A stretch of DNA of 64,000 nucleotides from Alphaproteobacteria bacterium (GTDB taxonomy: Bacteria; Pseudomonadota; Alphaproteobacteria; CAAHEQ01; UBA3637). The DNA lies in the NCBI GenBank assembly GCA_045598925.1, contig JAZRVC010000027.1, positions 847 through 64,846 of the forward strand, given 5' to 3'. A program made the position numbers and the translations under genes. The notes under the pieces are model-generated. The model had not been told where the DNA came from and made no database searches. It worked only from the letters and a program-made list of their open reading frames with translations. Position 1 is the first letter of the stretch, and every line of letters starts with the position of its first letter. This document shows, in pieces, positions 1 through 64,000 of the stretch.

Positions 1-1105
1 TACTCACCCCCGATGAAGCACTTTCATTCACAGCATAACCAAGCGCTTTTAAACCATCCGAATCCGAGGTATCCGCATCCATTTTAGACATTAATGTATG
101 ACCTTGTGCCAAACACCAGTTATGTGCACTCCACCAGTTCATCCCTTTATTAAGGTATTTTTTACCCACAAAGGCCGATGGTAAAGCGCGACCTGTTAAA
201 TCTTGAGCCGATAAAGTCTTATCCGCCTTAAACTCCCCTTCTATAATTGATTTACATTGACCTTGGGCAGGACCATATGAACACTCAAACTGATAACCAA
301 CATTAGAATATGCACTAAAATAACAAAATTCTCCGCTCTCGCATTCTGCATTCGTGGCACAACCCTTGGTACTGGCTTTAGTGGGTTCATAACATTGTCC
401 TGTGGAAAGACCATCTCCTGTACACGTAGAACCCGCAGCACAACAGACCCCTTTGCATGGGAGTTGTCCATTAGAAGAACATACATATATGCCATTGACA
501 CAAGTTGTTCCTTCGGGTTGAGTTCCCGTACAGGGTTTTCCCACAGGGCCAGGAGTCATCCCCGCCGTTAAATCTGTATTATAGGTAAAAGTGGTACATT
601 CTTCATTGATATACACATTCCCGTTGGTACTAATCGTTCCGTGAATTTGTTCGCACACATCCGAATCAATACCCGATACCGTTAAAGCAAAAGTATTGGT
701 GCCTGCCGTATAAGAAACCGTTGTATCAAAAGTTGCGCCTGCCACTTTATTACCTGTAAATTCCCCTAAATTCGGGGTGGCTTTATTGTTGCGTTGGATT
801 TGGGCCGAAACCGTCATCGCCCGCATGGATGCCCCGTTTAAAATTTCATTGGCGCGGTGTTTATTCATCGCCATTTTATAGCCCGCGATACCACCCACGG
901 ACAGCACCCCGATAATTGCCAAAACGCCCAGCATTCCAACCATAGAGCGACCCGTCTCCCCTGTCATTCTGAAGGCGTTAGCCGAAGGATCCATGGATCC
1001 TTCGCGTCCGCTCAGGATGACTGAGGGTGAGGTATGCCCGCTCAGGATGACGGGGGAAAGGTTTGATTGCCCTTGTTCTTGATTTAAATTTAATTTTTTA
1101 ATCAT
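1..1105 (-). CDS. Secreted cysteine-rich lectin-like protein with a type-IV-prepilin-like leader; the 3' end of the gene lies beyond the window edge
   Basis: I translated the minus strand by hand from the ATG at 1105..1103 (RBS GGAGA 7 nt upstream). It is open for all 368 codons to position 1. The N-terminus reads ...TGETG|RSMVGMLGVLAIIGVLSVGGIAGY, which resembles a prepilin leader plus hydrophobic helix and is very similar to the 63707 gene. This is followed by a Cys-rich region and a C-terminal ...MNWWSAHNWCLAQGHTLMS segment like the start of a C-type lectin domain. The track ORF 241..501(-) is a different frame. Confidence 0.7.
   Translation of the reverse strand, partial: MIKKLNLNQEQGQSNLSPVILSGHTSPSVILSGREGSMDPSANAFRMTGETGRSMVGMLGVLAIIGVLSVGGIAGYKMAMNKHRANEILNGASMRAMTVSAQIQRNNKATPNLGEFTGNKVAGATFDTTVSYTAGTNTFALTVSGIDSDVCEQIHGTISTNGNVYINEECTTFTYNTDLTAGMTPGPVGKPCTGTQPEGTTCVNGIYVCSSNGQLPCKGVCCAAGSTCTGDGLSTGQCYEPTKASTKGCATNAECESGEFCYFSAYSNVGYQFECSYGPAQGQCKSIIEGEFKADKTLSAQDLTGRALPSAFVGKKYLNKGMNWWSAHNWCLAQGHTLMSKMDADTSDSDGLKALGYAVNESASSGVS
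961..1056. mobile_element. RPE-like palindromic element (about 96 bp) inserted in frame in the leader of the 1..1105 gene
   Basis: There is a perfect 22-bp palindrome cgaaggatccatggatccttcg (983..1004). It is flanked by imperfect inverted arms (gtcattctgaaggcgttagccgaagg / ccttcgcgtccgctcaggatgac) and a direct repeat of cgctcaggatgac (1009..1021 and 1040..1052). The element encodes ...PVILSGHTSPSVILSGREGSMDPSANAFRM... without breaking the reading frame. Confidence 0.5.
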
Positions 1106-1439
1106 TTTTTTCTCCTAACATTCGTTATAAAGTTAATAAAAGACCCACCGAAAAGTGGGCGGATGTTAGAAAACCGTAGAATATAAACGGCTCAGCTTAT
1201 TCAGCAGTCGCCTTATTCAGCTGACATCCGCCCCAACGGACGAATGTCAACGTTATTTTAGGAGTCATTGAGAACTCCATATTCTGTGGGTTTTCTACGC
1301 CCATGCTTTCACCATTGAAAGCACCCCCAGTATAAAGAGAATTTCCCAAAAATGTCAAGTGAAAAATCTTTTTTCTTGCTTTTTGTTTTGAAAAGTGTAA
1401 AATAGCCCCTGTTCTATTTTTAAAAAGGAGAAAATAAAA

Positions 1440-63706: not shown

Positions 63707-64000
63707 ATGAAACAAAAAAAACGTGAATCCGGCCGCAGTTTATTGGAAATGTTGGCTGTTATTGCTTTAATTGGCATCCTGACAATCGGGGGAATTAAAG
63801 GGTATAGAGCGTTAGCAACACGTTTTGAAGTTCGGGCGGTTGCCGAAGCAATGACACGTTATGTGGTCAAACGTCGGCATGAAGCCATGACCAAAAAAGG
63901 CCGAGAAGAACATGAGCAAACGGTGACAAGCCCAGAAATTCCCCATGGCGTTTCCTTTAAAATTTCAAACGATGTGGTTAATCATTTAATTGTGATTAAA
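63707..64000 (+). CDS. Type-IV-prepilin-like (pseudopilin-like) protein, 5' portion (runs off the window edge)
   Basis: MKQKKRESG|RSLLEMLAVIALIGILTIGGIKGY... is a class III leader with Gly at -1 and Glu at +5. RBS AAGGAGA. It is very similar to the N-terminus of the 1..1105 gene. Confidence 0.65.
   Translation, partial: MKQKKRESGRSLLEMLAVIALIGILTIGGIKGYRALATRFEVRAVAEAMTRYVVKRRHEAMTKKGREEHEQTVTSPEIPHGVSFKISNDVVNHLIVIK

Follow-up and report, generated by a model that had tools for sequence, protein, structure and literature searches.

A palindromic repeat lies inside the 5′ coding region of a type-IV-pilin-like gene in the window, i.e., the whole 64-kb stretch (64,000 nt) of alphaproteobacterial DNA that was analysed. 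A sequence-only reading had recognized it as a single 96-bp element (961-1056), and the features then described do lie at these positions, but the element is composite and comprises a 61-nt dimer of two hairpin units together with a truncated copy of a unit head. The dimer is a tail-to-tail pair of hairpin units of about 30 nt, each with a GTC tag, a stem starting from AT and a CCA tail. We consider it probable that this CGTC-tagged REP-type dimer and its truncated head occupy the 5′ end of the pilin-like ORF, are translated with it, and are lost when the leader is cleaved off. Judging only from the NCBI names of the homologues ("MAG: Alphaproteobacteria bacterium", gut or rumen samples), the DNA seems to come from an uncultured alphaproteobacterium of the gut and not from a member of the Rickettsiales or Holosporales. 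The features concerned are as follows, a slash marking the cleavage position in peptides and the junction of the units in DNA.

1..1105, minus strand: 5′ part of the type-IV-pilin-like gene, with a predicted 52-residue leader, then G/RSMVGML and a hydrophobic helix.
1103..1116, minus strand: Shine-Dalgarno sequence AGGAGA (1116-1111) and ATG (1105-1103), read from the sequence.
1038..1052, minus strand: truncated third unit, head only (cGTCATCCTGAGCGG), seen as a direct repeat.
994..1022, minus strand: REP unit A, with tag aGTC, stem ATCCT, GAGCGGACGCGA, stem AGGAT and tail CCA, found by the hairpin-unit scan (997-1021, minus strand).
983..1004, no strand: 22-nt palindrome at the spacerless junction of units A and B, made up of their 3′ stems and CCA tails (GGATCCA/TGGATCC).
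962..993, plus strand: REP unit B, inverted, with tag tGTC, stem ATTCT, GAAGGCGTTAGCCGA, stem AGGAT and tail CCA.
965..967, minus strand: in-frame ATG in the head of unit B (..CAGAATGAC), an alternative start that would give MTGETG/RSMV.
935..952, minus strand: prepilin-peptidase-type cleavage motif, codons G(-1) R S M V G(+5), from the translation.
63707..64000, plus strand: second pilin-like gene, with the short uninserted leader MKQKKRESG/RSLLEML, from the translation (Pfam N_methyl 19.0 bits, for a cut-off of 21.2).

The palindrome CGAAGGATCCATGGATCCTTCG (983-1004) is perfect over its 22 nt, and none of 100 shuffles matched it even when three mismatches were allowed; at its centre, the CCA tails of units A and B meet as CCA/TGG (991-996). 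The 13-nt sequence CGCTCAGGATGAC is found at 1009-1021 and 1039-1051, without a third site in the 64-kb window, and this direct repeat extends to 19 nt at 89% identity (1008-1026 and 1038-1056). The truncated third head sits in a 30-nt duplicated block coding for HTSPSVILSG, where TRF calls no tandem array. A long hairpin spans 962-1022, in which unit B pairs with unit A. Folded as single-stranded DNA, the region 961-1023 reaches -15.2 kcal/mol on the minus strand and -16.5 kcal/mol on the plus strand (z-scores of -4.2 and -4.8, respectively), and in the mRNA context the longer stretch 940-1120 folds at -57.4 kcal/mol (z -3.1); an isolated unit folds at -2.7 kcal/mol (z -0.17), no better than shuffles. 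The stem of a window unit consists of five perfect base pairs, a tandem G.A/A.G mismatch and then 2-3 bp, closed by a loop of 3-4 nt. Units were located with a single-unit hairpin scan; a stricter search for GTCAT...ATGAC pairing with strongly complementary arms missed the window's own dimer. The palindrome, the 13-bp direct repeat and the long imperfect inverted arms of the sequence-only reading are thus all confirmed.

The gene carrying this composite is open over complement(2..1105) and reads MIKKLNLNQEQGQSNLSP-VILSGHTSPS-VILSGREGSMDPSANAFRMT-GETG/RSMVGML. Across the element, only one of the three frames is free of stops, and it is the gene's own; the claims that the reading frame is maintained and that the insert lies in frame between the initiator Met and the prepilin-type cleavage motif are therefore borne out by the translation. 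With AGGAG located 6 nt upstream, ATG 1105 is, from these sequence signals, the probable start codon, both ancestral and current, and the element is found between this SD-equipped ATG and the G/RSMV motif (952-947). The paralogue at 63707, which had been said to lack the insert and indeed does, displays the same AAGGAG-ATG arrangement.

The full protein (P0001, 406 aa) has a 100% identical counterpart in the database. Of the features of a class III signal peptide, both the Gly at -1 and the hydrophobic helix are present, and an AlphaFold model gives a pLDDT below 50 for residues 1-53, followed by a helix (56-105, 50 residues) and a beta domain. Foldseek returned weak matches only, namely PilA1, PilV and PilW for the N-terminal domain (pilin probability up to 0.63) and C-type-lectin-like folds for the C-terminal domain. 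Neither Pfam nor NCBIfam yielded an above-threshold match for this protein; the Pfam N_methyl model does not match P0001 and gives 13.9 bits for P0008, for a cut-off of 21.2. Position +5 is Glu in 114 of 115 homologues and Gly in the window's protein only. Given this replacement of an otherwise invariant residue, the window gene may not be functional, in which case the proposal that the insert is tolerated because it is cleaved off would be moot.

Comparison with homologues separates the insert from the rest of the gene. Among 115 close homologues, leaders exceed 20 residues in 61 and are short in the other 54 (e.g., MYKEKESG/RSMVEML), so that insert-free homologues, which the sequence-only reading had proposed to align, do exist; their leaders are of 7-10 residues. 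Peptides recognizable as REP-encoded, and of many types, are found in 42 of the 61 long leaders, several unrelated REP subtypes occupying the same leader site in this pilin-like family. The window's own REP type is present in 13 homologues, with 0-2 extra head blocks, and the upstream frame is open in all 13, with an SD-equipped, Lys/Asn-rich start. P0005 and P0086 both carry the element, and the data suggest that they lie on one contig.

Related copies are not confined to leaders. Within the 64-kb window, a search for further copies of the element gave nothing, but related copies are found at other loci, including the relative L110. This locus carries the same compact dimer in the homologous leader and again in an intergenic position, 1.4 kb downstream of the gene, making two copies within 3.3 kb; the intergenic dimer is nearly identical to that of the window and adjoins two other REP types. 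The element is thus a dispersed palindromic repeat and not ancestral coding sequence, as had been proposed. Window and L110 differ at five sites over the leader and REP, four of them synonymous in frame 0, and their identity, about 96% through this region, breaks down precisely where the outer head of unit B lies, before resuming at about 85%. The 30-nt head block is present in 0, 1 or 2 copies among homologues, L110 having one more than the window. More broadly, the unit motif GTCATCCTGAGCGG-N3-5-GAAGGATCC occurs in at least 119 genome loci from more than 10 phyla, mostly as inverted pairs around a variable spacer and sometimes as 36-nt tandem arrays, and the hairpin stems covary between REP subtypes.

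An empty/filled pair within the family, L205 versus L204 (and not the window's own gene), illustrates the insertion itself. L204 is longer by 60 nt, of which 50 are an insert with a single NTS-type unit and 10 a duplicate of CGAATCGGGA, the sequence of the N-E-S-G codons at the cleavage site. The insertion is recent and in frame, and the aligned flanks are nearly identical. Around the window's dimer, no target-site duplication can be seen. In addition, all 11 genes with a unit at most 50 nt from the cleavage codon have frame 0 free of stops over the units, while the other two frames of the same genes are open in 6 of 22 cases. These 11 genes, which represent about five independent groups, were found through the mature N-terminus, and the count is therefore independent of gene calls; L231 and L232 add one further group with an open frame across the units, so that these statistics still cover few independent lineages. 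As all cases sampled keep this frame free of stops over the repeats, translation of the insert is probable; its product would be a disordered stretch that lengthens the leader and is removed by the peptidase.

The following course of events would account for these data. Small non-coding dispersed repeat units insert at the cleavage-site position of pilin-like genes of this family, with target duplication, as seen directly in L204; in the window, the dimer lies between the original SD and ATG, with the Lys/Asn-rich start of the leader, and the G/RSMV prepilin cleavage motif. Translation would still start at ATG 1105, the 32 repeat-encoded residues forming a disordered extension of the class III signal peptide, and removal of this extension by prepilin peptidase would leave the mature protein unchanged and the insertion nearly neutral. 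Duplication or gene conversion may then carry the leader-plus-REP module to further members of this large set of paralogues, and slippage may add or remove copies of the 30-nt head block. The earlier suggestion that cleavage of the leader makes the insert tolerable agrees with the data, with the qualification that translation of the insert is likely rather than certain, ATG 967 offering an alternative start.

Indeed, the repeat brings an in-frame ATG in its own head (AGAATGAC, 967-965). If this were the real start, the REP dimer would effectively lie in the 5′ UTR of a gene with the leader MTGETG/RSMV, ATG 1105 would be a relic or an inconsequential upstream extension, and the hairpin would serve post-transcriptional control, through mRNA stability or translation. 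We regard this as unlikely, although the length of MTGETG (6 residues) matches the 7-10-residue leaders of uninserted homologues and many of the REP types found here end in ..ATGAC, which puts a Met in frame, 5-8 codons ahead of the Gly. A precedent exists as well: REPs at ORF N-termini are often extragenic, since translation starts downstream, and in several species REPs at ORF 5′ ends are mostly not codogenic (Di Nocera, De Gregorio and Rocco, 2013, BMC Genomics 14:522; PMC3733652). However, ATG 967 has no SD within 16 nt upstream, whereas pilin genes of the same genome have a strong AGGAG, and in the mRNA hairpin as predicted it lies in the paired stem, which would sequester it. The open upstream frame, found in 13 of 13 element-bearing homologues and at 11 of 11 unbiased loci, also argues against this start, as does the synonymous nature, in that frame, of four of the five substitutions relative to L110. 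Finally, ATGAC is out of frame in some lineages (e.g., ..RNDVCSIG/RSM).

The repeat could also be kept in the leader for a function of its own, either as an Ssn/NTS-like signal for recombination or ssDNA cleavage, promoting the shuffling of 5′ modules between paralogues, or as a translational brake. The prepilin leader would then be a selected site at which CGTC/SRM repeats preferentially land and are exchanged; these repeats, together with an Ssn-type nuclease encoded elsewhere in the genome, would drive 5′ recombination or tune expression. Several observations point in this direction, all of them correlative. Of 43 units, 13 fall in the 200-nt stretches that precede pilin cleavage codons; these stretches make up 5% of the sequence sampled (about 6-fold enrichment), but allowing for the preference of REPs for intergenic DNA probably lowers the enrichment to about 2-3-fold. 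Several unrelated REP subtypes share one site; yet the target GAATC(N)GG resembles the REP foot, and a plain target preference could explain this recurrence. The collapse of identity between window and L110 falls at the outer head of unit B, the region cut by Ssn enzymes (Chenal et al., 2025, Nat Commun 16:2388; PMC11893778), but no Ssn gene is present in the 64-kb window, and half of the family works with no insert at all. In Neisseria, dRS3/NTS repeats were first described at pilin loci, adjoining variable genes, a situation that can be likened to a selected site; here, in contrast, the repeat is inside the ORF, with the signal peptide as a disposable container. Such a role is doubtful, both for the repeat and for the leader as a selected site. 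As to the 96 nt being ordinary ancestral coding sequence that is palindromic by chance, its single copy in the 64-kb window and its open frame would agree with this, but the same dimer in intergenic position in L110, the unit motif at 119 or more loci across phyla, the 54 of 115 homologues without insert, the fold z-scores of -4.2 and -4.8 and the empty/filled pair within the family make it hardly credible.

Other searches returned no match. No Rfam family covers the element, whether in the window at a relaxed E-value or at 15 loci with long versions at the gathering score. A literature search by sequence strings gave irrelevant primer matches only, and a protein search with the repeat-encoded peptide alone gave no candidates. 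ORF clustering within 2 kb of 119 diverse loci revealed no recurrent neighbour gene, tblastn and a profile search found no ssn gene in the 64-kb window, BLAST against plasmids gave no match, and a search of viral contigs with a single Ssn protein detected no relatives.

Taken alone, the window's repeat adds a further case to the in-frame REP insertions already described, in Rickettsia as well as in other bacteria. Its unit GTCATCCTGAGCGGAGCGAAGGATCC, nonetheless, spans many more phyla than the published CGTC families and escapes the published SRM pattern, so that Ssn/REP surveys probably miss a large subfamily. The paralogous pilin-like family, with different REPs at one site and a clean empty/filled pair, additionally provides a natural test bed for insertion and could show how much extra sequence a class III signal peptide tolerates. 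It also carries a warning for annotation: "long-leader" pilins in such genomes are REP-decorated, and their start codons uncertain.

Among known systems, the closest are the CGTC-tagged REPs, which are mainly alphaproteobacterial and include Neisseria dRS3 and Rickettsia conorii RPE-6 (CGTC-1) as well as RPE-4 (CGTC-4) (PMC3733652). Their intragenic copies include in-frame ones coding for 20-30 residues, many at ORF N-termini, and N-terminally decorated proteins are reported as expressed (PMC3733652). The window's repeat shares the tag with this class, as tGTC in unit B (962-965) and cGTC in the truncated unit (1052-1049, minus strand), for accepted variants TGTC and CCTC; the aGTC of unit A, in contrast, is absent from the published list. 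Further likenesses are the A-T and T-A pairs that open the stem right after the tag (ATCCT...AGGAT and ATTCT...AGGAT), the short unpaired CCA tail (AGGAT-CCA in both units), and the frequency of inverted dimers, some with spacers of only 0-2 bp (Wolbachia CGTC-4). However, CGTC-1 to -4 have stems of 8-9 bp and loops of 4-5 nt, which the window units lack, and they therefore belong to none of the four; the tail-to-tail arrangement is rare among CGTC repeats (PMC3733652), and the window's unit sequence occurs in many more phyla than the five reported for CGTC REPs. On its sequence features, we thus assign the element to the CGTC-tagged REP/Ssn-related-motif superfamily, as a variant outside the four described families.

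In other bacteria, members of this superfamily serve as single-stranded DNA targets that small GIY-YIG "Ssn" nucleases bind and cleave. The motifs published with these enzymes are the NTS (CGTCATTCCCGCGMAVGCGGGAATCYRG) and the Ssn-related motifs (SRM); conserved bases 5′ of the palindrome are needed for cleavage and a cytosine 3′ of it for binding (PMC11893778). The CGTCAT-hairpin-C architecture is common to NTS/SRM and the present repeats: GTC precedes and C directly follows the palindrome in both window units, and the unit inserted in L204 is an exact match to the NTS consensus. In contrast to NTS, which are rarely intragenic (2% in N. meningitidis; PMC11893778), the window repeat is intra-ORF, in a pilin-like family that accumulates such repeats there. 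Units of this kind bracket small GIY-YIG genes in L173, L227, L228, L120, L207 and L217; we do not present this as a new observation, as it is already published (PMC11893778). The SRM pattern HGTCWYN(0-2)YYVSBRHN(0-5)WNVSBRGN(0-2)RNCYNB matches the L204 insert, but neither the window nor either of its units. The L173 units also fail to match it although they bracket an Ssn-like gene, and the pattern is thus narrower than the family.

Ogata et al. reportedly described, in 2000, Rickettsia palindromic elements inserted in frame in ORFs (RPE-1 type). RPE-1 elements are longer than 100 bp and, unlike the window element, are restricted to Rickettsia. As in these insertions, a palindromic repeat lies here in a coding frame that is kept, and adds a peptide segment. 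Only RPE-4 and RPE-6 belong to the CGTC superfamily, RPE-1 being treated as separate (PMC3733652); the label "RPE-like" given by the sequence-only reading thus stands at the superfamily level, but the element does not appear to be a Rickettsia palindromic element as such.

REPINs and REPtrons, i.e., GTAG-tagged REP doublets and their RAYT tyrosine transposases, are similar in that two inverted REP hairpins make one long hairpin, and in being non-autonomous and multi-copy, with a cognate enzyme gene bracketed by repeats. They differ in the tag, GTAG there and GTC/CGTC here, and in the associated enzyme, here a GIY-YIG nuclease. To our knowledge, no RAYT is involved with the window's repeat class, and a RAYT/REPIN reading was dropped given the (C)GTC tag and the tie made in the literature between this class and GIY-YIG Ssn nucleases. 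As for the features of MITEs, inverted arms are present, and a flanking duplication (10 nt) is seen at the single-unit insert of L204 and not at the window's dimer. In-frame REP insertion is therefore a known kind of event, to which the present case adds a modest twist: a pilin-like family that collects repeats at that very spot.

The palindromic element in the leader of the pilin-like gene (complement(1..1105), product P0001) consists of two REP units (small dispersed hairpin repeats) joined tail to tail, together with a truncated third head:

994-1022, minus strand, unit A: tag GTC, stem ATCCT...AGGAT, tail CCA
962-993, plus strand, unit B: architecture of unit A in inverted orientation
1038-1052, truncated head copy, third piece of the element

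On the coding strand, the element reads cGTCATCCTGAGCGG-gcatacctcaccctca-GTCATCCTGAGCGGACGCGAAGGATCCA|TGGATCCTTCGGCTAACGCCTTCAGAATGAC. The 22-nt palindrome described in the sequence-only reading (CGAAGGATCCATGGATCCTTCG, 983-1004) is perfect, and none of 100 shuffles matches it, even with three mismatches; it is formed by the 3' stems and CCA tails of units A and B, which abut without a spacer. The direct repeat (CGCTCAGGATGAC, 1009-1021 and 1039-1051) was also borne out, has no third site in the window and extends to 19 nt, and the proposed inverted arms correspond to a single long hairpin at 961-1023 (DNA folds of -15.2 and -16.5 kcal/mol, z-scores of -4.2 and -4.8; z-score of -3.1 in the mRNA context). 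As claimed, the reading frame is maintained: the ORF from ATG 1105 (minus strand) crosses the element uninterrupted (MIKKLNLNQEQGQSNLSP VILSGHTSPS VILSGREGSMDPSANAFRMT GETG|RSMVGML), in the only one of the three frames that is stop-free there. The element is single-copy in the 64-kb window, where no further element of the same kind was found, and the pilin-like gene at 63707 indeed has a short leader without the insert (MKQKKRESG|RSLLEML).

P0001 is a complete 406-residue protein without a Pfam or NCBIfam hit above threshold. Its type-IV-pilin-like nature is supported by the G|RSMVEML motif, the hydrophobic N-terminus, the NCBI name of its homologues ("type II secretion system protein"), an AlphaFold model (residues 1-53 disordered, helix 56-105, then a beta domain) and weak Foldseek matches to PilA1/PilV/PilW and, over the C-terminal domain, C-type-lectin-like folds; on these grounds, the protein resembles a pilin whose C-terminal domain is lectin-like. 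That domain (residues ~290-406; window 1-400, minus strand) follows a Cys-rich region and carries the motif MNWWSAxNWC; its structural matches, among them C-type lectin-like folds and the C-terminal domain of Bdellovibrio Bd2740, are weak. These features suggest an adhesin-like minor pilin, with C-terminal modules that vary across paralogues. Position +5 is Gly (GGA; codon 57, window 935-937, minus strand), a position occupied by Glu in 114 of 115 homologues. Glu5 is normally important in pilin assembly; the window copy may be impaired or defective, or the Gly may reflect a sequencing or assembly error. The names given to homologues suggest that the host is an uncultured alphaproteobacterium of the gut.

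Directly upstream of the Shine-Dalgarno (SD) sequence of this gene lies a conserved structured RNA (window 1128-1233, minus strand), with a full-length, sub-threshold match to Rfam sRNA-Xcc1 (39.7 bits vs a GA of 53, E 2e-5) and another sub-threshold match to C4 antisense RNA. Homologues detected by nhmmer, with E-values of 1e-8 to 1e-13, immediately precede pilin-like genes in several gut/rumen loci; L126 and L196 have a homologue but no identified pilin-like gene directly after it:

L136 700-817; L133 4842-4957; L125 78-183; L170 238-348; L156 1272-1397: homologues of the upstream RNA
L126 905-1052; L196 864-995, minus strand: further homologues of the upstream RNA

RNAalifold predicts a closing stem, two inner hairpins and a terminator with a U-run, with compensatory changes at 11 of 25 pairs. 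Only ~10-20 nt separate the end of the terminator from the SD; this RNA may therefore regulate the pilin genes, or read-through of it may be how they are expressed.

Translation probably starts at ATG 1105 and proceeds through the repeat. This codon is preceded, at 6 nt, by AGGAG, as in the uninserted paralogue. The rival reading places the real start at ATG 967, within unit B, which would give the leader MTGETG|RSMV and leave the REP extragenic. Such a leader is of textbook type, an in-frame Met lies 5-8 codons before the Gly in many REP subtypes, and N-terminally placed REPs frequently lie outside the gene, a caution given in the literature (PMC3733652). ATG 967, however, has no SD and is paired in the predicted mRNA hairpin. 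Translation from ATG 1105 is further favored by a frame test on loci found via the mature N-terminus, and hence independent of gene calling: frame 0 runs through the units without a stop in all 11 genes (about five independent lineages) with a unit at most 50 nt from the cleavage codon, versus 6 of 22 cases for the two other frames. The frame also stays open in L231 and L232 despite a 1-nt spacer indel, and four of the five differences between the window and L110, a 3.3-kb contig, in leader plus REP are synonymous. If translated, the 32 extra residues would be part of the disordered leader of the AlphaFold model, and prepilin peptidase would be expected to remove them.

Leaders of this kind recur in the family. 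Among 115 close homologues with the motif and an initiator Met, 54 have short leaders (e.g., MYKEKESG|RSMVEML) and 61 have leaders of more than 20 residues. Recognizable REP-encoded peptides of many subtypes are present in 42 of these 61, always just upstream of x-E-x-G|RSMVEML, such as VILSGREGSMDSSANAFRMT, CHSELVSES...RTKSGMT, CHSERSEESR, SFPRKRESR or VILNLIQDP...GFRIRSGMT. The subtype of the window occurs in 13 homologues; the extra block of 10 residues is present there in zero, one or two copies, and the upstream leader start takes five different forms. Moreover, 13 of 43 units fall within the 200 nt that precede pilin cleavage codons, i.e., in 5% of the sampled sequence, a ~6-fold enrichment that is in part the general intergenic preference of REPs.

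One empty/filled pair captures a recent insertion, the aligned flanks being almost identical:

L205 3075-3084 (gene of P0109), empty site: ...GGGAAAA CGAATCGGGA CGATCAATGG...
L204 352-421 (gene of P0090), filled site: ...GGGAAAA CGAATCGGGA [TATTCCCCTATCC CGTCATTCCCGCGCAGGCGGGAATCCAG AAAGGATTC] CGAATCGGGA CGTTCGATGG...

The insert is 50 nt long, comprises one canonical NTS unit (an Ssn-related hairpin motif; Ssn being small GIY-YIG ssDNA nucleases) and is flanked by a 10-nt direct target duplication, CGAATCGGGA, encoding N-E-S-G; the total gain of 60 nt is in frame, without a stop, and precisely at the cleavage-site codons. The repeated hits at this position may stem from a similarity between the target GAATC(N)GG and the repeat's own foot. 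No target duplication is visible around the dimer of the window. Target-site duplications are not mentioned in PMC3733652, from which the term is absent, or PMC11893778, and the L204 duplication is possibly informative on how such repeats move.

L110, which encodes the close homologue P0002, carries a compact window-type dimer in the leader of this gene and a second, near-identical one in the intergenic region downstream, beside two other unit types; the element is therefore not a single-copy stretch of ancestral coding sequence, the outcome named beforehand as refuting. The intergenic dimer (L110 1660-1790) has on its flanks 20-nt direct repeats (CCACCCAAGGGGTGCCTTTT), each a small terminator-like hairpin, separated from the element ends by 13 nt and 7 nt. 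From the alignment start to the end of unit B, window and L110 are ~96% identical, apart from one 30-nt head block; identity collapses over the 19 nt directly outside the unit B head and then recovers to ~85%, with mostly third-position differences. This mosaic suggests a recent exchange of a leader-plus-REP module, with a breakpoint beside the repeat head. Ssn enzymes cut ssDNA at this position in other species, and a link between the two would be speculative.

Searching ~400 kb of related loci for hairpins preceded by GTCAT gave 58 units, versus 19 in shuffled sequence. They form a family, with an invariant GTC-AT...AT-C frame and covarying stems (e.g., GTCATTCTCGGGCTTGACCCGAGAATC, GTCATACCATGGCTTGACCATGGTATC and GTCATTCCCGCGGAGGCGGGAATC). 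The window-type pattern, GTCATCCTGAGCGG-N3-5-GAAGGATCC, matched 4 viral contigs and more than 119 loci in a species-representative genome collection; the genome loci listed include, by record title, Acidobacteriota, Verrucomicrobiota, Clostridia, Bacteroidota, Chloroflexota, Patescibacteria, Alpha-, Beta- and Gammaproteobacteria, Fibrobacter, Gemmatimonadota, Actinomycetota, Planctomycetota, Myxococcota and others. Their commonest layout is a unit, a variable 10-60-nt spacer and an inverted unit, and a few of the matched loci carry 36-nt tandem arrays. Separately, some REP dimers of different loci and samples share a conserved ~65-nt spacer (..CTAGTCAATAAATTAGCCTTATTATTGCATAAGTGCTGG..), forming a composite element of ~125 nt that is present also inside long pilin leaders:

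L182 4839-4961; L203 797-1020; L207 1398-1520: dimers with the ~65-nt spacer

At six independent loci, CGTC-type hairpin units lie near small (~96 aa) GIY-YIG genes (PF01541):

L173 4117-4560; L227 653-1017; L217 860-1800 (variant tag GTCAC): units on both sides
L228 560-700: units upstream only (the contig end cuts the downstream side)
L120 1030-1395; L207 1001-1840: units downstream only

In L173, perfect 26-nt inverted units flank the gene, 63 nt ahead of its ATG and 40 nt past its stop, as in the published NTS-ssnA-NTS architecture (PMC11893778). Unit number downstream of the L207-type gene differs between samples (L207-L216). These loci corroborate the REP-unit/Ssn link already published in PMC11893778 and are not new in this respect.

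CGTC-tagged REPs are defined by an unpaired CGTC tag (or TGTC/CCTC), an 8-9-bp stem beginning with AT, a 4-5-nt loop and a ~CCA tail; they are frequently dimeric, are found mostly in Alphaproteobacteria and have no dedicated transposase reported (Di Nocera et al., PMC3733652). Neisseria dRS3 and R. conorii RPE-6 belong to CGTC-1 and RPE-4 to CGTC-4, and intragenic in-frame copies encode 20-30 residues, N-terminal ones possibly being extragenic in reality (PMC3733652). These same hairpins, under the name NTS (CGTCATTCCCGCGMAVGCGGGAATCYRG) and generalized as "SRM", were shown to flank the genes of Ssn nucleases, which recognize them in single-stranded form and cleave the ssDNA a few nucleotides to their 5' side (Chenal et al., PMC11893778). 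The window units share the tag, the AT-stem, the following C and the CCA tail with CGTC-tagged REPs; unlike the published families, their stem comprises 5 bp, a tandem G.A and then 2-3 bp, and they fail the published SRM regular expression. Because the L173 units bracketing an Ssn-like gene also escape this expression, the SRM pattern is narrower than the family. The element is thus a CGTC-tagged REP/Ssn-related-motif dimer of a subtype outside the published families. The sequence-only reading is essentially correct in seeing a palindromic repeat carried in frame by a leader that can be cleaved off; the name it gives is imprecise, RPE-4 and RPE-6 being kin at the superfamily level only. Elements of this kind, their GIY-YIG nuclease association and intragenic in-frame copies are already described; new are the unit subtype, which is very widely distributed, the repeated insertion into prepilin leaders within a large paralogous family, and a single clean empty/filled pair in which 10 nt of the target are duplicated.
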